Source: Escherichia phage vB_EcoM_DE17. From it: DNA of 64,000 nucleotides. The stretch lies in sequence record OP595146.1. One strand, given 5' to 3'. Made by a program: the position numbers and the translations under genes. Below are positions 4,359-64,000 of the stretch, piece by piece (the stretch's first letter is position 1; the number at the start of each line of letters is the position of its first letter). Below the pieces are notes generated by a model. The model did not search any database. It was given only the letters and a program-made list of their open reading frames with translations, and was not told the origin of the DNA.

Positions 4359-6140
4359 TTAAAGCTGCTTGTCAATATTATTTCGAATATCACCAAGAGT
4401 TGTGTAGCCGAACTGCTCAGAGTCGCTAAAGACTAAACGTAAAGCACAAGCTGGATGTTCAAGTGCATCTGCAAAGCTCTGGAATCCATAGCCATCTACA
4501 GCTTTCAGATTCTCACCATCCCACATAGGGGCTACACCACCAAAAGCAGACTTCTTAACACCACTATCTGTTTTAGGGTCTTTTGCAAGCATAATCTCTT
4601 TACCACCAATTCTTGCAAGAGTTGCTTTGACAGCAAATGCAAAGGTGTCACGAGTCATGTACTGGTAAGTGTAAGAACCTACACCAAACACTACGTTAGA
4701 GCTTGCAAAACCCATTTCATACAAACGCTTAAGGATTTCGTTTGCGCGTTCCAACGTGATAGAGTCACCATAAATAAGTCCGATATGCTCATCCAGTACT
4801 TTAAAACCTTTAGAGTTGATAGTTCCTCCAAAGATGTTATACAGTGTCTTGATAGCTCCATCAATCTCCGCTACAGGACGTGTTACAACGTTTGCAGAAC
4901 CAACCATATAAGCATTTTTCAACAGCACTGTATCAGCAACTTCAAAGTCTTCTCTGTCAACAACCATTTCGTAACCTTCTGACAGTAGCCATCCAGCAAT
5001 ACCATAATTGATGTTTTCAAGCTTCATGTTCAGAACAGCATTCAGCATTGTGTCGCTGGCTTCCAGCTTACTTAGGTGTTCGTAATAAGCCTTTTTAGCA
5101 CACTCTAAATGGATTGCTTTGTATCCTGTGACAATATGTACAGGGTCTCCAGAATCAGGACGAATTACCAGTTTGCCATCACGTTCCATAATCTCTTTAC
5201 GGAGTTCTGGCAATATGACTGATACAGTTCTCCAGAAGTTATAAGTATCTGAAACAACACTTGCAATACCAGTTGGGTAAGTTTTTGTTAAGAAACGACG
5301 GAAGGTTTGTAACTCACCTTTAAAGCGTCTTTCTTCTTCAATCAACTCGTTACCACCTTCCCAAGCAATGTTTGCACACATTACAGAATGTTCAGTGGCT
5401 GGTACAGAGCTACCAATATCAGAGATTGGGTAGGACTGTCCATAGATGCGTTTAGCTGTATACACAGCAGGGAAGCTATCAGTCCCTTTAAAGCTGGTTA
5501 AGTGACCTACAGCGTTAAATGCGTCATCAGTAAAGCCAGACATACCACGCATAGCAAAGTCATGGCACTGGTAAGGTAAATGTAAGTCGTTGTCACAAGT
5601 AAGGTCAGCCCACTTCTTACAGATACGTTTGTAGTGCAATGCAATAGTTGCAATGGTACAAGCCTTCCAAATCTCAGCAGAGAAAGCATCTTCCAGATAC
5701 CCCGCTACCCAATGGAAACCTGAAACAGTGTTCTGGAAAACAATCATTGGTACACGCATAGGGACAACTGTACCTTCTTCTACAGCGTAGACTTCAACTG
5801 GTAAATAACCTAAGTCGTGGAGTGCTTCCCAATGTTCTCGACCAATAGCATCTTTACCCAGAACACCATTCATGACTTCTAAGATTTCGTCAATTGCTTC
5901 TTTTTTGTCACGTTCAAAGAACGTAGCATTCCAATGGTCTATCAGGTAATCTTTAACAAAACGTTGAATACCAAAAGCAACTACACCATCAATTGCTAAG
6001 GGGCTGTTAAACCATTTGTCACTACGTGGTGTCAGGTTGAACATCAAGTACTCTGTTGCGCTAGGATACTGGTAGATGTGACCAGATTTGTAAGCATCTG
6101 CGTTTAAACCTGCTGGTACTGCATAAAGTGATTTAGTCAT
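4359..6140 (-). CDS. nadV: nicotinamide phosphoribosyltransferase family protein (NAMPT/NadV-like; possibly Namat-type)
   Basis: 593 aa; sequence pattern typical of the NAMPT family throughout; adjacent to a Prs-like gene. Confidence 0.8.
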   Translation of the reverse strand: MTKSLYAVPAGLNADAYKSGHIYQYPSATEYLMFNLTPRSDKWFNSPLAIDGVVAFGIQRFVKDYLIDHWNATFFERDKKEAIDEILEVMNGVLGKDAIGREHWEALHDLGYLPVEVYAVEEGTVVPMRVPMIVFQNTVSGFHWVAGYLEDAFSAEIWKACTIATIALHYKRICKKWADLTCDNDLHLPYQCHDFAMRGMSGFTDDAFNAVGHLTSFKGTDSFPAVYTAKRIYGQSYPISDIGSSVPATEHSVMCANIAWEGGNELIEEERRFKGELQTFRRFLTKTYPTGIASVVSDTYNFWRTVSVILPELRKEIMERDGKLVIRPDSGDPVHIVTGYKAIHLECAKKAYYEHLSKLEASDTMLNAVLNMKLENINYGIAGWLLSEGYEMVVDREDFEVADTVLLKNAYMVGSANVVTRPVAEIDGAIKTLYNIFGGTINSKGFKVLDEHIGLIYGDSITLERANEILKRLYEMGFASSNVVFGVGSYTYQYMTRDTFAFAVKATLARIGGKEIMLAKDPKTDSGVKKSAFGGVAPMWDGENLKAVDGYGFQSFADALEHPACALRLVFSDSEQFGYTTLGDIRNNIDKQL

Positions 6141-32507: not shown

Positions 32508-32867
32508 ATGAAACGTGAAAATATTATCCACTCTGAAAACTTCGCATTAGGCTTTTATGGTGTACCTACTCACCTTGAAAAGTATTATGGTGTGAAGATT
32601 CTTTCCAATCTCATTATTGCTTATAAAGATGGTAAGATTAAGCATACTGAGAAGAAACGTGTCATGGGTTATATGGCTGTAGGTTCAGCAATCTCAAACA
32701 TTAAGCTGGAAACAACTAGTAGCCAGATTGTAAAAGACCACTTCATCAAAGAGCTTTACCACAATCTTGATGGTGTAGCTGTTCAGGCTGTTTGGCTGGA
32801 TGTTGATGGTCACAATTACACAAGCTTCGTTTTCAAAAATGATGACATTAAGTGTCTGTTCCCATAA
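32508..32867 (+). CDS. hypothetical protein
   Basis: 119-aa ORF. Confidence 0.5.
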   Translation: MKRENIIHSENFALGFYGVPTHLEKYYGVKILSNLIIAYKDGKIKHTEKKRVMGYMAVGSAISNIKLETTSSQIVKDHFIKELYHNLDGVAVQAVWLDVDGHNYTSFVFKNDDIKCLFP

Positions 32868-59078: not shown

Positions 59079-59153
59079 TGGAGAATCCGAAGGGACTCGA
59101 ACCCTTATAAACCTGTTTTGCAGACAGGCACATATCCATTTCTGTCACGGATT
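59079..59153 (-). tRNA. tRNA-Cys (anticodon GCA)
   Basis: Hand-folded: acceptor gaatccg/cggattc, T-arm AAGGG-TTCGAGT-CCCTT, loop CTGCAAA, CCA encoded. Confidence 0.7.
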
Positions 59154-59157
59154 CAAA

Positions 59158-59250
59158 TTGGAGGAAGATACCAGACTTGAACTGGTACACCGATTTCTCA
59201 GCTACTGGCAGTTTAGCAAACTGCTCCCTTACCTTTTAGGGTTAATCTTC
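59158..59250 (-). tRNA. tRNA-Ser (anticodon GCT), class II
   Basis: 93 nt; anticodon stem GCAGT/ACTGC, loop TTGCTAA, long variable arm, T-arm ACCAG-TTCAAGT-CTGGT. Confidence 0.65.
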
Positions 59251-59252
59251 CA

Positions 59253-59987
59253 TTATTTCTGTAATGCGTTCTTCATTTCTGGTGTTGCAATAGTGTCAAT
59301 TACACCAGTTTTACAAGCATCATCAAACCAGTCTGGTAAGATACCTGCTAAGAACCCATTGATATTCGTTTTAAGGTACTCTGCAATAAGGGCAGCTTCT
59401 TCTTCAATCATCTGCACAACTTCATCTGCATAAGCTGTAATCTTTGAGATACCTTCATTAATCTTACTAACAGCTTGGTTAGCTAAATCAGAAATAGTAT
59501 CAAGACCTTTATCAATAGCATCCTGTAAGTCACTTAATACATCATTAACACCGTCTAGTGCACTGTTAATCGTATCCATAGCTTTTTGACCATACTCTGT
59601 AGCAACACCCATAATACCACTAAATGGTGTACAGCCAACTTGTTCACCTGCTGCACCCATAACATTAGAATAGCCTTTTGCTACCTGCATACGTGAGGAA
59701 AACTCATCAATGGACTTTTGACCATAATCTGTCAGTGTCTTAGTAGTTGATGTAGTGCTTGTCAGACTCGTTGTAAAGCTGTTAAGCAGAACTGTTGTAA
59801 GTCCAGCAGCAACAAGTTTATCTTTTATTGTAGGGTCTGTTACAGAGCTAATAGAGCTTACAAGTGATGTAGAGGCAGCTACGGTTCCACCGAGAACTGC
59901 TGCACCAGTAATAAGGGGATTAGAAAACCCTCTACCGGTTTTTAAGAGATTAAAAATCTCCTTACCTTGTTCTGTCATCTCTTTCAT
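59253..59987 (-). CDS. hypothetical Ser/Thr-rich protein embedded in tRNA cluster
   Basis: About 244 aa; start set to ATG at 59987 (MKEMTEQ) so it does not overlap the tRNA at 60004..60080; ends 3 nt before tRNA-Ser. Confidence 0.45.
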   Translation of the reverse strand: MKEMTEQGKEIFNLLKTGRGFSNPLITGAAVLGGTVAASTSLVSSISSVTDPTIKDKLVAAGLTTVLLNSFTTSLTSTTSTTKTLTDYGQKSIDEFSSRMQVAKGYSNVMGAAGEQVGCTPFSGIMGVATEYGQKAMDTINSALDGVNDVLSDLQDAIDKGLDTISDLANQAVSKINEGISKITAYADEVVQMIEEEAALIAEYLKTNINGFLAGILPDWFDDACKTGVIDTIATPEMKNALQK

Positions 59988-60003
59988 TAAGCACCTTTGG
60001 AAT

Positions 60004-60080
60004 TGGTAGTCCAGTGGGATTTGAACCCTCTTCTCATGTTTTTCAGACACGCGCTTTAACCATATAAGCTACTTGGACTA
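60004..60080 (-). tRNA. tRNA-Phe (anticodon GAA)
   Basis: T-loop TTCAAAT, anticodon loop CTGAAAA; one T-stem mismatch in hand fold. Confidence 0.6.
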
Positions 60081-60085
60081 TAAAT

Positions 60086-60161
60086 TGGGGTGACCTACGG
60101 GATTTGAACCCGTATAGACCATGTTCACAGCATGGGTCATTACCATTTATGATAAGGCCAC
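60086..60161 (-). tRNA. tRNA-His (anticodon GTG)
   Basis: Anticodon stem CCATG/CATGG, loop CTGTGAA; T-arm ACGGG-TTCAAAT-CCCGT. Confidence 0.65.
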
Positions 60162-60192
60162 ATTTAAGGACTCTCGTAAGAACCCTTAGAAG

Positions 60193-60268
60193 TGGCAGCG
60201 GCATAAGGATTTGAACCTTAATAAGACAGCTTCAGAGACTGCTGCATTGCCAGTTATGCTATACCGCT
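60193..60268 (-). tRNA. tRNA, probably Gln (anticodon CTG)
   Basis: T-arm TAAGG-TTCAAAT-CCTTA; anticodon loop CTCTGAA on a stem with two G-U pairs. Confidence 0.5.
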
Positions 60269-60273
60269 AAATT

Positions 60274-60352
60274 TGGTACTCCATATCGGATTCGAACCGA
60301 TACATAACACAGATTTTAAGTCTGGCCTCTCTGCCAATTGGAGTAATGGAGC
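60274..60352 (-). tRNA. tRNA, isotype uncertain (loop suggests anticodon TAA)
   Basis: T-arm ATCGG-TTCGAAT-CCGAT, CCA encoded; loop CTTAAAA; short variable arm is atypical for Leu. Confidence 0.5.
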
Positions 60353-60354
60353 AT

Positions 60355-60429
60355 TGGCGGGGGATGTTGGAATTGAACCAACTTCTTCGATTTCAAAGAC
60401 CGAGGTTTTAACCTTGTAAACTAATCCCC
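60355..60429 (-). tRNA. tRNA-Gln (anticodon TTG)
   Basis: T-arm GTTGG-TTCAATT-CCAAC, loop CTTTGAA; 1-72 mismatch in hand fold. Confidence 0.55.
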
Positions 60430-60438
60430 TTTAAATCT

Positions 60439-60996
60439 TTACTTTCTCAGTGGATGAATAAAGAATGCCAACATAACTCTTTCCCTTGAGAATGCTCTTT
60501 CTTCTGGGACAACACTTTTTAGCTTCCATCCAACATAAATTCTCCAGTAGAATTGTTTACCAAAGACTTTAATTGATGGGATAAAAGCGAATAATCCCCA
60601 AGCATTACTGTTCCACATTAGGAGATAACCTGTCTGATTATCTTCAGGGTTAGAACTTACGTTGATATTACCTTTCCACTTAGTAACATCTTTTACATCT
60701 CTTCCTAATACATGGTAAGAGAAGTTATAAGCTTTGTTTCTCCAGAGCCAACCAACTCTCTGCATATAGACACCAAGCTTGCCAATCTTTCTAATCTTAG
60801 CCCATCGTTCGACATGCCCTTTATCACCATCAATTGGGTTGTCATATGTCTCCATCCATCTGAAGCCGAAAGGTAAGTGTCCTTTCTTCTCACTGTAAAA
60901 TGGAACTACAAAAGGTGCTAAGATAACTGCTAAGATTGCTGCAAATGGTTCTAACAAAGCTAAGAAAATCCATGAAGCATACTTCAAATATCTCAT
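60439..60996 (-). CDS. membrane protein embedded in tRNA cluster
   Basis: 185 aa; N-terminal hydrophobic helix ASWIFLALLEPFAAILAVILAPFVV; flanked by tRNAs. Confidence 0.5.
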   Translation of the reverse strand: MRYLKYASWIFLALLEPFAAILAVILAPFVVPFYSEKKGHLPFGFRWMETYDNPIDGDKGHVERWAKIRKIGKLGVYMQRVGWLWRNKAYNFSYHVLGRDVKDVTKWKGNINVSSNPEDNQTGYLLMWNSNAWGLFAFIPSIKVFGKQFYWRIYVGWKLKSVVPEERAFSRERVMLAFFIHPLRK

Positions 60997-61015
60997 CTAA
61001 ATAGCCTCTTTAAAT

Positions 61016-61091
61016 TGGCGCAGGATAAGGGATTCGAACCCCTATTAACAGCTTCGTAGACTGTTGCTCTATCCATTTGAACTAATCCTGC
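61016..61091 (-). tRNA. tRNA-Arg (anticodon ACG)
   Basis: Acceptor gcaggat/atcctgc, T-arm GGGG-TTCGAAT-CCCTT, loop CTACGAA. Confidence 0.7.
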
Positions 61092-61204
61092 TTACCTACA
61101 AGAACACCATACAGTTTTTCACAAGAGTTGTTTTTACGCCTGTTTTTGAATGACGCTATAAACTTTTTTGCAATTGACTTATTACTCATAGTGTTCTCCT
61201 AAAA

Positions 61205-61283
61205 TTGGTGTTCCAAGACGGATTCGAACCGTCACTAGTACAAGGTTTGAGCTTGCATCCTCTGCCAATTGGGATACTGGAAC
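61205..61283 (-). tRNA. tRNA, isotype uncertain (loop suggests anticodon CAA)
   Basis: T-arm GACGG-TTCGAAT-CCGTC; D-stem ATCC/GGAT; loop CTCAAAC; short variable arm. Confidence 0.5.
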
Positions 61284-61284
61284 A

Positions 61285-61359
61285 TGGTACTCACTAAAGG
61301 ACTTGAACCTTTTTCTTCATCTTGTAAGGGTGATGTTTTACCATATAAACTAAGCGAGT
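61285..61359 (-). tRNA. tRNA, possibly Val (anticodon TAC)
   Basis: T-arm AAAGG-TTCAAGT-CCTTT; loop CTTACAA with one stem mismatch. Confidence 0.5.
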
Positions 61360-61455
61360 ATGAAAGAGGTCTGAAGTTGTGCCGCTAACTCAACTCCGTG
61401 GGATTTGTTACGGTCTTCAGTTGACTCAAAGCGGTCTTTCACTTGACCTCTAAAT

Positions 61456-61531
61456 TGGTGCTCCCACAAGGATTCGAACCCTGATAAGTTGCTTACAAGG
61501 CAACCGTAATAGCCAATTATACGATAGGAGC
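61456..61531 (-). tRNA. tRNA-Thr (anticodon TGT)
   Basis: Perfect anticodon stem GTTGC/GCAAC, loop CTTGTAA. Confidence 0.7.
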
Positions 61532-61538
61532 ATTAATT

Positions 61539-61613
61539 TGGAGCATCCAGAGGGAATCGAACCCTCAACATCAGTTTGGAAGACTGTAATTTTCCCGTTT
61601 AAACTATGGATGC
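61539..61613 (-). tRNA. tRNA-Gly (anticodon TCC)
   Basis: T-arm GAGGG-TTCGATT-CCCTC, loop CTTCCAA. Confidence 0.65.
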
Positions 61614-61619
61614 ACTAAT

Positions 61620-61695
61620 TGGTGGAGTCACTGAGAATTGAACTCAGTTCCCAAGTTTGCAAAACTCGAATTTTAACCATATAAACTATGACCCC
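61620..61695 (-). tRNA. tRNA-Ala (anticodon TGC)
   Basis: Acceptor GGGGTCA with G3-U70 pair typical of tRNA-Ala; loop TTTGCAA. Confidence 0.7.
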
Positions 61696-61701
61696 ATTGT
61701 T

Positions 61702-61777
61702 TGGTACAGGTGGAGGGAATTGAACCCATCGTCTTACTGATTAAGAGTCAGCCGCATAACCATTTTGCTACACCTGC
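61702..61777 (-). tRNA. tRNA-Lys (anticodon CTT)
   Basis: Loop CTCTTAA on stem GCTGA/TCAGT; T-loop TTCAATT. Confidence 0.6.
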
Positions 61778-61784
61778 ATTAATT

Positions 61785-61862
61785 TGGTAGGAGACAAGGG
61801 ATTCGAACCCTCAAACACCAACTTCTAAGGATGGTAGGTTTACCAATTACCGTCAATCTCCC
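61785..61862 (-). tRNA. tRNA, isotype uncertain (loop suggests anticodon TAG)
   Basis: T-arm GAGGG-TTCGAAT-CCCTT, CCA encoded; loop CTTAGAA; D-arm fold ambiguous. Confidence 0.5.
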
Positions 61863-62116
61863 ATTAAATCTTTTTAGAGAACTTCTAAGAACCTAAGCAA
61901 CAAGGTTCCACAACAAGCTGTAATAACCTTAGAAGCCCTCTAAAAAGACCTAAATTGGTCTTTGCATAGTCTTGTTTAATCCGGTGACTAGAACCTTTGG
62001 AGAGCTTGATATTATCTCTTCTCCGTGACACCTACTAGGTGCTTTATCAGTGTGTACGACAATACACGAGGGATACCAAAGCAACATCCGAATGAAGCTT
62101 GGCTTTAAATCTTATT

Positions 62117-62207
62117 AGGCGGTAAGTAAAGGAGTCGAACCCTCACCGTATCTCTACAGTGGCAACTGTTTTCAAGACAGTTTGGCTACCATTAGCCGCT
62201 ACCTACC
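62117..62207 (-). tRNA. tRNA-Ser (anticodon TGA), class II
   Basis: 91 nt; perfect anticodon stem ACTGT/ACAGT, loop CTTGAAA, long variable arm; 3' CCA not encoded. Confidence 0.7.
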
Positions 62208-62220
62208 CCTAATAAGACTT

Positions 62221-62303
62221 TGGCATGGGACGGAGGAGTTGAACCCCTTTGAAACGGTTTTGGAGGCCGTTGCTCATGCCTTAGAGTCTTAACATCGTCC
62301 CAC
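62221..62303 (-). tRNA. tRNA-like gene, isotype uncertain (possibly Trp, anticodon CCA)
   Basis: T-loop TTCAACT and paired acceptor ends; 83 nt; internal fold ambiguous; candidate loop CTCCAAA. Confidence 0.45.
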
Positions 62304-62445
62304 ACTATAATTCGAAGCTTACCGTATTTTCGCAACACTGTAAAGCCCCTTCTCAGATTATTTACATGTTCTGGAAAACATGAGATACAGACCACCTCCT
62401 TACACGGAGACCCGATAAGGTCGTCTAAGCAATCTGCTAACTATT

Positions 62446-62522
62446 TGGCACACCCTACAGGATTCGAACCTGTAACTAACGATTTAGAAGACCGTTGCTC
62501 TATCCAATTGAACTAAGGGTGC
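62446..62522 (-). tRNA. tRNA-Arg (anticodon TCT)
   Basis: T-arm ACAGG-TTCGAAT-CCTGT, loop CTTCTAA; D-arm near-identical to tRNA-Arg(ACG). Confidence 0.7.
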
Positions 62523-62814
62523 ATTAATCTTTAAAGACTCTCTTAGAAAGCCCTTAAAGATGCCCACCTTATTAATCATACCGTGGGCGAGTACGCCAAA
62601 TTCTTTGATGAGGGATTGGAAGACCTCACTGGTGTTTAGCCTATCAAGCTACTGCCAGAAAAACATTGTCGTTTGCATTTATTTTAAGTTTGCAAAATAG
62701 ACGCTACGCAACGAAAACTATTCAGAATATGTACAACAAATTTCCCCACATTGTGTTACGTCTAACACTCATGTATTGGTGTTTGAATTATACATATTAT
62801 GAAGTATTTTAGTT

Positions 62815-62843
62815 ACTATAAAGTGGTCACACCTCAATGTCAA
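62815..62843 (-). promoter_or_regulatory. sigma70-like promoter inside tRNA cluster
   Basis: Minus strand TTGACA-N17-TATAGT in an AT-rich spacer between tRNA-Ile and the tRNA-free region 62523..62810. Confidence 0.45.
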
Positions 62844-62858
62844 CAACTTTATTGAAAT

Positions 62859-62934
62859 TGGTACTGGTAGGTGGAATCGAACCACCGATGTTCCCTTATC
62901 AGGGGAGTGTTATAACCTTCTTAACTATACCAGC
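62859..62934 (-). tRNA. tRNA-Ile (anticodon GAT)
   Basis: T-arm GGTGG-TTCGATT-CCACC, loop CTGATAA. Confidence 0.65.
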
Positions 62935-62935
62935 T

Positions 62936-63012
62936 TGGAGGTTCAGATGGGAATCGAACCCACATTCATAGGGCTTATGAAACCCCTGCATTACCTTATC
63001 TGCGACTGAACC
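62936..63012 (-). tRNA. tRNA-Met (anticodon CAT)
   Basis: Loop TTCATAA on stem GGGGT/GCCCT; T-arm GTGGG-TTCGATT-CCCAT. Confidence 0.65.
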
Positions 63013-63016
63013 ATAT

Positions 63017-63092
63017 TGGTAGAAGTGGAGGGATTCGAACCCATCGCCTGTCAGATTAAAAGTCTGCCGCATCACCATTCTGCTACACTTCC
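63017..63092 (-). tRNA. tRNA-Lys (anticodon TTT)
   Basis: Loop CTTTTAA; acceptor and T-arm similar to the tRNA-Lys(CTT) copy. Confidence 0.65.
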
Positions 63093-63236
63093 ATTAAATC
63101 ATCTTTGTAGATAAGCTACCCAGACTTGCTTAAGGTCTGTAGCGATGTGCATTGTTGGGTTTAAATCTAGAATTTACCCTTTCACCCTTTGTGGTCGCAT
63201 ACTCACAGGTAAGCTTAATAGCTCACCTACAAAGAT

Positions 63237-63380
63237 AATTACCAGACCGTTGTTTATCATCTTAAGTGCTACCATTACACCAACTCGACATCTGCCGAGT
63301 GAAGGAATCGAACCTTCGCCTTTTCTTTACCGGAGAAATAGATTGTTTAAGTTTTGCTGTAAACGGTCTTCTGTAAATTT
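63237..63380. repeat. repeat copy 1 (attaccagaccgt ... ttttgctgtaaacggtcttctgtaaattt) carrying a tRNA-like T-arm insert
   Basis: Terminal motifs shared with copy 2; the two ends can pair (agaccgt / acggtct); about 95 nt between them includes gccgagt-GAAGG-aatcgaa-CCTTC with no matching 5' acceptor. Confidence 0.5.
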
Positions 63381-63546
63381 GTTGAGCCAGACCAAGTTTA
63401 AATTTTTCAAAATTAAATTGGCTTGAAATTTTAAGTAACTTGCTGAATTTGGTCTTCTGCTCCTTTAAAGAATACTCGTAAGAACTCTTTAAGGGAGGGG
63501 CTAAATAGCCCTCTCAAAACATCATCTTGAAATACTTATTATAATT

Positions 63547-63624
63547 TGGCGGTTACGAAGGGATTTGAACCCTCATCATCTCCCGTGACAGGGGAGTATT
63601 TTAACCAGATTAAACTACATAACC
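63547..63624 (-). tRNA. tRNA-Asp (anticodon GTC)
   Basis: Perfect anticodon stem CTCCC/GGGAG, loop CTGTCAC; T-arm GAGGG-TTCAAAT-CCCTT. Confidence 0.75.
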
Positions 63625-63630
63625 TTTATT

Positions 63631-63718
63631 TGGTGTGCCGTGTAGGAGTCGAACCTACCGAGTCTCAATGACAAGGGATTTACAGTCCCCACCGCTACCA
63701 TCTACGGGATAACGACAC
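63631..63718 (-). tRNA. tRNA-Tyr (anticodon GTA), class II
   Basis: 88 nt; loop CTGTAAA; long variable arm; T-arm GTAGG-TTCGACT-CCTAC. Confidence 0.7.
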
Positions 63719-63788
63719 ATTTATTATTCTATTCAGGCTAAGGACTTGCACCTTACAAATCGGTGAGCAATCGCTTCTCTCCTAAATT

Positions 63789-63865
63789 TGGCGGTTAGTC
63801 AGGGATTCGAACCCTGTGCCATTCGCTTAACAGGCGACCGCACATACCTTATGTGCTTCCTAACC
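63789..63865 (-). tRNA. tRNA-Asn (anticodon GTT)
   Basis: D-stem GCAC/GTGC, loop CTGTTAA, T-arm CAGGG-TTCGAAT-CCCTG. Confidence 0.65.
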
Positions 63866-63872
63866 ATGTTTA

Positions 63873-63951
63873 GTATTACCAGACCGTATCTTTTCAATTT
63901 TTCCGCTAAAAATTTCATTAAATTTTGCTGTAAACGGTCTTCTGTAAATTT
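63873..63951. repeat. repeat copy 2 (attaccagaccgt ... ttttgctgtaaacggtcttctgtaaattt)
   Basis: Same terminal motifs as copy 1 but only about 36 nt between them; abuts the 3' end of the partial tRNA-Met. Confidence 0.5.
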
Positions 63952-64000
63952 GGAGGCGGGTGCAGGAGTCGAACCTGCCGATACCATGCTAATGAGACAT
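63951..64000 (-). tRNA. tRNA-Met/fMet (anticodon CAT), 5' part beyond window
   Basis: 3' half only: CCA, acceptor ACCCGCC, T-arm GCAGG-TTCGACT-CCTGC, loop CTCATTA. Confidence 0.5.

Follow-up and report, generated by a model that had tools for sequence, protein, structure and literature searches.

Repeated elements in the tRNA cluster of a Felix O1-like phage are candidate Y-RNA-like RNAs, the longest carrying a circularly permuted tRNA-like cloverleaf

Ro60/Y RNA particles are conserved from bacteria to humans, and the tRNA-like domain of the bacterial Y RNA YrlA lacks an assigned role. In YrlA, the 5' and 3' ends of the RNA form the Ro60-binding stem, with a conserved motif on the 5' strand, and the remaining domains follow in the order T arm, capped acceptor-like stem-loop and D arm, plus a V region (Chen et al. 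2014, PMC4201824). YrlA genes lie at most about 4 kb from the Ro60 gene on the same strand, with shorter paralogues alongside, and the YrlA of M. smegmatis, whose capped acceptor stem has 7 bp, is cut by RNase P and receives CCA (PMC4201824). In Thermus phage phiLo, two RNAs named Yrl1 and Yrl2 are encoded beside a phage Ro60 (PMC12135203; PDB 9KOP, 9L5Y); their binding to the protein and their complex with host PNPase were shown experimentally (PMC12135203). Here we describe three related structured elements at the end of a 64,000-nucleotide stretch of Escherichia phage vB_EcoM_DE17 (OP595146.1, hereafter the window). They share a terminal module that we call the handle, and the longest of them, E4, encloses a permuted tRNA cloverleaf. 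With a probability that we put at about 0.6, the handle RNAs would represent a new class of phage RNAs that resemble Y RNAs and have escaped annotation, its long member being a YrlA-like permuted tRNA mimic.

The end of the window corresponds to the tRNA cluster of a Felix O1-like phage (Felixounavirus), and positions 62500-64000 are 94-98% identical to many Felixounavirus genomes. ARAGORN detects 23 tRNAs at 59079-63865, every one on the minus strand, and the repeat element is therefore to be read on that strand. The plus-strand reading was rejected, as its fold is no better and is devoid of tRNA features. The sequence ATTACCAGACCGT occurs exactly twice in the window, at 63238-63250 and 63875-63887 (spacing 637), and so does the 29-nt sequence TTTTGCTGTAAACGGTCTTCTGTAAATTT, at 63352-63380 and 63923-63951 (spacing 571), an exact duplication far beyond chance. 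As minus-strand RNA, the left and right copies both read 5'-UUAC-AGA-AGACCGU-UUACAGCAA ... ACGGUCU-G-GUAA-3', and their arms pair through 7 bp (AGACCGU/ACGGUCU) and 4 bp (UUAC/GUAA) across a 3-nt/1-nt internal loop. A preliminary description of this region had correctly recognised a repeated structured unit whose arms pair in both copies. Its spacing of about 640 bp agrees with these values, whereas its count of two copies misses a third, copy B (Table 1). Likewise, its inter-arm length of about 36 nt is close to the 35 nt of the right copy, while the 95 nt or so given for the left copy falls short of the actual 101 nt.

The handle common to the three window copies comprises a 7-bp helix, AGACC(GU/AA)/(AC/UU)GGUCU, a covarying 4-bp outer helix and the unpaired motif NUWCAGCAA. 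All three satisfy a definition in which the helix starts with (A/U)-G-R, the 5' side carries N-U-W-CAGCAA and a G follows the 3' strand. Both helices of copy B are doubly compensated relative to those of the other two copies, and its fold has a z of -2.1. Copy A fills the spacer between tRNA-Met, which ends at 63948, and tRNA-Asn, which starts at 63865, exactly (ARAGORN). A fourth copy is present in relatives, between tRNA-Glu and tRNA-Met just past the window end. The outer helix covaries across paralogues and genera (UGAC/GUCA, UUAC/GUAA, UUGC/GCAA, GAGC/GCUC, GGGGC/GUCCU) and is confined to Ounavirinae, where the asymmetric internal loop is also conserved. It was discarded as a family-wide feature, being no better than shuffled controls outside this group.

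In the minimum free energy (MFE) fold of E4, the handle closes four hairpins that correspond to the four tRNA arms. Their order is anticodon-like arm, T arm, 3' acceptor strand, 4-nt loop, 5' acceptor strand and D arm, with the chain break of the tRNA between positions 26 and 27. E4 is a complete tRNA cloverleaf in permuted order. The T-arm/3'-acceptor string noticed earlier in the left copy (GCCGAGT-GAAGG-AATCGAA-CCTTC) is indeed present, at 63294-63317, and this copy does hold tRNA-derived sequence. The 5' acceptor strand that had been reported as missing is GUCGAGU at 63283-63289 (minus); on the RNA it follows the 3' strand after 4 nt, and it was overlooked because the tRNA is circularly permuted. 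Direct reading of the sequence identifies U8, A14, G18, G19 and A21, and the T-loop nucleotides engaged in tertiary interactions (U54, U55, C56, A58) are retained. When the 5' half is placed before the anticodon-like arm and CCA is appended, ARAGORN calls a 74-nt tRNA-Thr(GGU). In the tRNA scan of the native order, which the preliminary description had proposed, ARAGORN finds no conventional tRNA in E4, and the Rfam tRNA model RF00005 gives a partial match at 63300-63350 with 22 bits, under its gathering score of 29.

Permuted tRNA genes occur in Cyanidioschyzon merolae, where the 3' half lies upstream of the 5' half and a short linker joins the acceptor ends. These tRNAs are matured via a cut at a bulge-helix-bulge (BHB) motif, circularisation and cleavage by RNase P and RNase Z. 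E4 resembles them in the order of its halves, in the restoration of the cloverleaf by circular permutation and, in some phage copies, in a linker that follows an encoded CCA. It differs in its junction, a conserved handle made up of a 4-bp helix, a 3-nt/1-nt loop and a 7-bp helix in place of the 3-4-3 BHB, and in an anticodon-like loop that is not conserved.

By analogy, E4 could be a true permuted tRNA gene giving rise to a working tRNA-Thr, two-piece or re-joined, through RNase P, 3' trimming, CCA addition and perhaps removal of the handle or ligation. The tRNA-Thr(GGU) call after de-permutation and the 7-bp capped stem of this phage accord with such a product, as do the capping loops with discriminator and CCA in Mooglevirus and distant phages, expected for joined 3' and 5' ends, and the RNase P cut and CCA tail of M. 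smegmatis YrlA (PMC4201824). However, the anticodon-like loop CCGGUAA has C33 here, comprises 6 nt in Felix O1 itself and is different in Mooglevirus, and is therefore not a decoding anticodon loop. The capped stem measures merely 5-6 bp in Suspvirus and Sf13, the acceptor loop of the window copy is AGAU and does not encode CCA, and the handle is not a BHB splice motif. The annotation of Felix O1 26-76 kb includes neither an RNA ligase nor RtcB or a polynucleotide kinase, and a handle of about 60 nt at the 26/27 junction would probably clash with the ribosome. We regard a working tRNA as very unlikely.

Comparison with related phages, also suggested in the preliminary description, reveals that E4 is kept in 239 of 252 records (presence being defined as at least 80% coverage). 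In the alignment of its copies from Felixounavirus, Suspvirus and Mooglevirus, pairing is preserved in 96.5% of structure cells. The T and D arms show almost no variation across these three genera, and the capped acceptor stem has three pairs altered on both sides (ACUCGGC/GUCGAGU, ACACG/CGUGU, ACCCUUC/GAAGGGU). A 93-aa open reading frame (ORF) at 63145-63426 on the plus strand shifts in frame, start and length in close relatives (93, 76, 50, 49, 48, 44 aa), and Bas63 annotates two small hypothetical ORFs, bas63_0137 and bas63_0138, at the E4 position. E4 is under selection for structure, not decoding. This structural constraint without conservation of the loop or of an ORF makes a decoding tRNA, a pseudogene and a protein-coding gene all poor explanations.

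In particular, the covariation of the capped stem among the three genera argues that E4 is neither a pseudogene nor a rearrangement scar, the two origins put forward in the preliminary description. A decaying tRNA pseudogene or recombination scar in a repeated spacer, for instance a by-product of homing endonucleases, might be expected where HNH endonuclease genes interrupt the tRNA cluster, as they do in relatives, and where other degenerate tRNA-like pieces lie nearby. Yet the four arms are intact, the nucleotides of tRNA tertiary interactions are kept and compensatory changes extend across genera. Moreover, the same permuted layout recurs in distant, unrelated phages inside the same type of handle and with unrelated sequences, so that an inserted pseudogene or the footprint of a rearrangement appears highly improbable.

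To follow the handle beyond close relatives, we used 80 viral contigs encoding DUF2828 proteins (the family of the protein encoded next to the tRNA cluster, see below), mostly 38-47% identical, plus two Ounavirinae-like contigs. A strict handle pattern (7-bp helix, 3 nt, CAGCAA, then the complement within 260 nt) gives 144 matches on the gene strand, as against 29 for the other strand and 19 in shuffled controls. A handle lies at most 1.5 kb from the DUF2828 gene on the same strand in 51 of the 80 loci (opposite strand, 8/80), often right after the stop codon or before the start codon of the gene. Features that were not selected for are conserved as well: helix position 1 is A in 80% and position 2 is G in 90%, a U stands two nt before CAGCAA in 90%, and 61 of 81 distinct helices have a G just after their 3' strand. 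The helix sequences themselves are nearly all different (AGGUUCC, AGGAUAG, AGAAUGC and UGGAUCA are examples). When sites are chosen by the 5' sequence motif alone, which makes the test of the complement non-circular, the distant loci contain 83 distinct sites on the gene strand and 4 on the opposite one. A perfect 7-nt complement is found downstream of 62 of these 83 sites, compared with 2 for upstream and 7 for shuffled 7-mer controls. The positional and strand association of the handle with the DUF2828 gene across phages is shown by these counts.

A covariance model (CM), R1, trained exclusively on 22 short elements from outside Ounavirinae, matches copy A at 63878-63943 (E = 6.5e-8) and copy B at 63386-63458 (E = 2.1e-6). 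It misses or misaligns E4 because of its 100-nt cargo, as we call the sequence enclosed by the handle. R1 finds nothing significant in the tRNA region of phage T5, nor in 50 kb of the rest of Felix O1, which includes the remainder of its tRNA cluster. A weak match within the window, at 32671-32728 on the plus strand (18 bits, E = 0.06; UGGCU...UUCAGCAA...AGCCA-G), is on the other strand, at a great distance from the tRNA cluster, and probably arose by chance. Several handle-bearing contigs have no tRNA gene nearby, and tRNA genes are therefore not required. The term "processing or regulatory element" used in the preliminary description is accordingly too narrow, as the handle tracks the Ro60-like gene even on such contigs. 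Apart from the sub-threshold tRNA match, no Rfam family covers the handle elements.

One might also suppose that the elements act as DNA, as miniature inverted-repeat mobile elements or recombination sites, or that the 93-aa ORF is what the region encodes. The two strands of the handle do form short inverted repeats around a variable cargo, the ORF does exist in the window, and bas63_0137 and bas63_0138 have been annotated as genes in Bas63. Against this, the sequence of the inverted repeats changes in nearly every copy, whereas the asymmetric CAGCAA stays the same and keeps to one strand (83 versus 4), G-U pairs occur in the helices on the RNA strand, and the ORF varies in frame, start and length among close relatives. 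We find this explanation scarcely credible.

All relatives examined carry a 471-aa gene, under the annotation "RNA-binding protein" or DUF2828, on the strand of the tRNA cluster and immediately upstream of it. The end of this gene lies about 0.34-1.1 kb upstream of the four elements in relatives; by synteny, it would fall about 0.45 kb past the window end, placing the gene outside the window. Its Bas63 counterpart is bas63_0130 (gp130). The only Pfam matches at E <= 1 are DUF2828 and DUF7788, a phmmer search against PDB sequences retrieves no Ro60, and homology to Ro60 is undetectable at the sequence level in Pfam, NCBIfam and PDB sequences. The AlphaFold (AF2) model built with 36 homologues has high confidence, with a predicted local distance difference test (pLDDT) of 88 and a predicted TM-score (pTM) of 0.88. 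Searching PDB with this model, Foldseek returns as its top 9 matches exclusively full-length Ro60, Rsr and phage Ro60 structures (E 2.5e-8 to 1e-6, TM at most 0.66), among them Xenopus and human Ro60, D. radiodurans Rsr and Ro60 of Thermus phage phiLo. The model and these comparisons show a predicted Ro60-like fold, composed of a helical-repeat ring and a von Willebrand A domain with a MIDAS, whose DxSxS motif is invariant (D279, S281, S283). A PhageMaP preprint, a study of knockouts across the genome, described gp130 of the Felix O1-type phage Bas63 as Ro60-like and as countering ppl defence, and offered as mere speculation that "some tRNA genes ... are possibly Y RNAs" (PMC11482910). Since handles recur beside Ro60-like genes in many unrelated phages, the handle RNAs are probably RNA partners of this known phage anti-defence protein.

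The cargo enclosed by the handle is diverse. Of the 15 long elements examined, 11 show the order T arm, capped stem, D arm, including 8 of the 10 that come from viral contigs; the others are from this window, two relatives and Yersinia phage P778. In distant permuted cargoes the capped stems have 5-8 bp and every sequence is different. The capping loop consists of the discriminator, CCA and 2-4 nt in Mooglevirus and several distant phages (Table 1); a CCA 3' end that is encoded and joined to the 5' end suggests a possible opening by RNase P, as for M. smegmatis YrlA. Other distant cargoes are short hairpins resembling copy B, and two additional conserved classes of cargo share GAACCUUUCUGGAGGGGAAAGCAAAAACUCGCC or CAAGCAGA, the latter followed by an A-rich stretch with AAUAAA. 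Neither class has a match in Rfam. As separate observations, one handle encloses a tRNA-Thr(UGU)-like sequence in normal order with a weakened acceptor stem (Rfam tRNA, 52.9 bits at 4753-4824), and at another locus a phage transfer-messenger RNA (tmRNA; Rfam, 75 bits) is encoded on the strand of the Ro60-like gene, about 2.8 kb downstream of it and ahead of a tRNA cluster.

Compared with YrlA, the effector domain of E4 likewise has a T arm, a capped stem-loop and a D arm with tRNA invariant nucleotides, and its acceptor stem is 7 bp long, as in the M. smegmatis RNA. The ends of E4 also pair into a stem, with a conserved motif in the 5' strand of the adjacent loop, and in relatives a gene for a Ro60-fold protein, homologous by structure, not sequence, lies nearby on the same strand. 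Shorter paralogues beside E4 recall YrlB, one handle being combined with variable effector domains. In contrast to YrlA, E4 sits inside a phage tRNA cluster, its "V" hairpin has the exact geometry of an anticodon arm (5-bp stem, 7-nt loop, 4-nt variable loop), and the Pfam assignment of its putative partner is DUF2828/DUF7788 instead of TROVE. The phiLo system is similar in that a phage Ro60-fold protein, there one of the best structural matches of the Felix O1-type protein, is encoded adjacent to two or more small RNAs with a stem, bulge, stem layout and a conserved motif beside the terminal stem. The phiLo RNAs differ in carrying CGAA and in that a tRNA-like domain is unreported for them; their binding is experimental, that of the window RNAs predicted. 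Small stable RNAs interspersed among phage tRNA genes are also found in T5 (RNA1, RNA2, RNA3, RNAI and others), whose record (NC_005859, 28-41.6 kb) lists eight stable RNAs with no assigned function and terms three of these tRNA-like; the annotation of the 35 kb of T5 examined includes no Ro60-like gene. We found no earlier description of the handle RNAs in the searchable literature on DUF2828, phage Ro60-like proteins, permuted phage tRNAs and Felixounavirus non-coding RNAs.

Based on these comparisons, the three elements may be minus-strand genes of small non-coding RNAs, transcribed together with the phage tRNA cluster and probably set free by the same enzymes that process the adjacent tRNAs. 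The handle, with its terminal 7-bp helix, unpaired NUWCAGCAA and 3' G, would be the docking site of the Ro60-like protein, as suggested by the co-occurrence, the shared strand and the analogy with Y RNAs, in which a conserved motif stands beside the terminal stem. The short copies would resemble YrlB or Yrl-type partners and the long copy YrlA. The E4 cargo could then be a tRNA mimic with a loop-capped acceptor stem, the chain ends leaving the junction of the D stem and the anticodon stem into the handle, and such a tRNA-shaped cargo might recruit a tRNA-recognising factor to the Ro60-like ring, or decoy it there. For the handle RNAs we infer transcription, processing, protein binding and an anti-defence role.

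Several results weigh against the assignment to Y-RNA-like RNAs. The likeness of the neighbouring protein to Ro60 is structural only, at 11-16% identity, and the Pfam model of TROVE does not match it. The handle motif is NUWCAGCAA, not the GNCGAAN0-1G of YrlA, and handles are devoid of this or the CGAA motif of known bacterial and phage Y RNAs; GNCGAA is absent from the three window copies. The Rfam YrlA model RF02553 (gathering score 69 bits) does not hit the elements when 391 nt are searched at E <= 10, and 13 distant loci give no match that reaches the gathering score. No handle is detectable within 5 kb in about 30% of DUF2828 loci, and this share stays handle-less, because relaxed pattern and CM searches in the 27-29 loci concerned yield few variants (CCGCAA in L070 and L089, for example). 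One related lineage lacks the long copy. The numbers of G-U pairs and A-C mismatches in the helices (6 versus 2), tried as a strand test, are too few to decide and only weakly strand-informative. Finally, the copies of this phage sit in tRNA-tRNA spacers, copy A filling its spacer completely, as would suit a purely processing role.

This last point belongs to an explanation in which the hairpins are cis signals and not RNAs with functions of their own, namely processing sites of the RNase III or RNase E type or stabilising structures placed at intervals along the polycistronic tRNA transcript, or else autoregulatory sites in the untranslated regions of the Ro60-like mRNA. The extra outer helix of Ounavirinae, with its conserved asymmetric internal loop, might be a nuclease site, and in other phages most copies are within a few hundred nt of the start or stop of the DUF2828 gene. 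A processing signal, however, would have no need of an entire cloverleaf whose T and D loops are conserved and whose capped stem covaries, or of several distinct conserved cargo classes. Handles are found without nearby tRNA genes, neither the T5 tRNA cluster nor the remainder of the Felix O1 cluster contains any, and 2-5 paralogues per locus are usual for sets of Y RNAs. We consider cis signals unlikely, at odds of about one to five.

The handle RNAs are concrete, unannotated candidates for RNA partners of gp130, sometimes mis-annotated in databases as tiny ORFs. Their handle motif is new to Rfam and extends to many uncultured phages with varied cargo, permuted tRNAs included. It offers a means of searching for phage ribonucleoproteins of what may be a large class. 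In a bolder version, which we hold to be rather unlikely as a whole, the handle would be a universal docking module through which a single Ro60-like phage protein carries exchangeable RNA cargoes. One class of these would be genuine permuted tRNAs, opened by RNase P in the capping loop (discriminator, CCA and short linker) to yield two-piece, CCA-ended and possibly chargeable tRNA mimics that stay on the ring. Against host defences aimed at tRNAs or nucleic acids, such a particle would serve as decoy, sensor or repair platform, which would explain the effect of gp130 on ppl.

Table 1. Coordinates of the putative handle RNAs, their parts and other features; positions are those of the window unless preceded by the number of another locus.
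Feature	Position	Strand	Remarks
Copy C (E4), left copy	63237-63380	minus	long handle RNA of ~140 nt with circularly permuted tRNA-like cloverleaf
E4 inner handle helix, 5' strand AGACCGU	63363-63369	minus	partner 63244-63250
E4 inner handle helix, 3' strand ACGGUCU	63244-63250	minus	followed by conserved unpaired G at 63243
E4 single-stranded motif UUACAGCAA	63354-63362	minus	family consensus N-U-W-CAGCAA
E4 outer helix, 5' strand UUAC	63373-63376	minus	partner GUAA 63239-63242
E4 internal loop	AGA 63370-63372 opposite G 63243	minus	between inner and outer helices
E4 anticodon-like (or V) arm UUUCU-CCGGUAA-AGAAA, then AGGC	63322-63338	minus	MFE fold, de-permutation
E4 T arm GAAGG-UUCGAUU-CCUUC	63301-63317	minus	canonical T loop; invariant in alignment, one G-U change aside
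E4 capped acceptor-like stem-loop (AS) ACUCGGC-AGAU-GUCGAGU	63283-63300	minus	7 bp, one U-G pair
E4 D arm GUGU-AAUGGUA-GCAC	63266-63280	minus	preceded by U8 and G9 at 63281-63282
Copy B (E3)	63384-63462	minus	short handle RNA; inner AGACCAA/UUGGUCU, outer GAGC/GCUC, motif AUUCAGCAA
Copy B (E3) cargo	within 63384-63462	minus	hairpin UUUCAA...UUUGAAA
Copy A (E2), right copy	63875-63951	minus	short handle RNA; R1 match, fold
CCA-type capping loops	L001 1604-1721; L042 6422-6544; L048 6528-6635; L077 6795-6917, 9484-9606		
Cargo class of ~100 nt sharing GAACCUUUCUGGAGGGGAAAGCAAAAACUCGCC	L016 3133-3232; L020 149-280; L022 1265-1373; L031 4734-4828		
Cargo class of ~165-245 nt sharing CAAGCAGA	L049 4652-4897; L069 4435-4673; L072 4714-4877; L086 4289-4532		
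Handle around normal-order tRNA-Thr(UGU)-like sequence	L042 4734-4833		
Phage tmRNA	L027 8605-9054		
148-nt element	63093-63240	minus	between long handle RNA and tRNA-Lys
tRNA-like gene	62227-62301	minus	missed by ARAGORN
T-arm-like hairpin	63719-63788	minus	tRNA-Asn/tRNA-Tyr spacer
Inverted repeats I3	62107-62220		around tRNA-Ser(UGA)
Inverted repeat I1	61864-61953		tRNA-Leu/tRNA-Ser spacer

The tRNA cluster contains further structured elements. The 148-nt element next to E4 has a 24-bp closing stem and a multi-branch core with z = -6.2, none of 200 shuffles being as stable. It has no Rfam match, is overlain by a small hypothetical ORF in Bas63, and is kept at 4870-5010 in the diverged lineage that lacks the long copy (L009), with stem changes that are apparently compensated. 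The tRNA-like gene missed by ARAGORN matches only tRNA-Sec in Rfam (23 bits). It combines an acceptor-like stem of 7-8 bp ending in ...U-GCCA and a T arm GGGG-UUCAACU-CCUC with an odd, long D region, and its anticodon-arm loop contains CUCCAAA, of the tRNA-Trp type; no other tRNA-Trp is called in the cluster. The hairpin between tRNA-Asn and tRNA-Tyr, UAAGG-UGCAAGU-CCUUA, resembles a degenerate T arm (fold z = -2.5) and may be a decayed tRNA remnant. The 13-nt inverted repeats I3 flank their tRNA-Ser and would lengthen its acceptor stem, and I1 is a separate inverted repeat with 26-nt arms.

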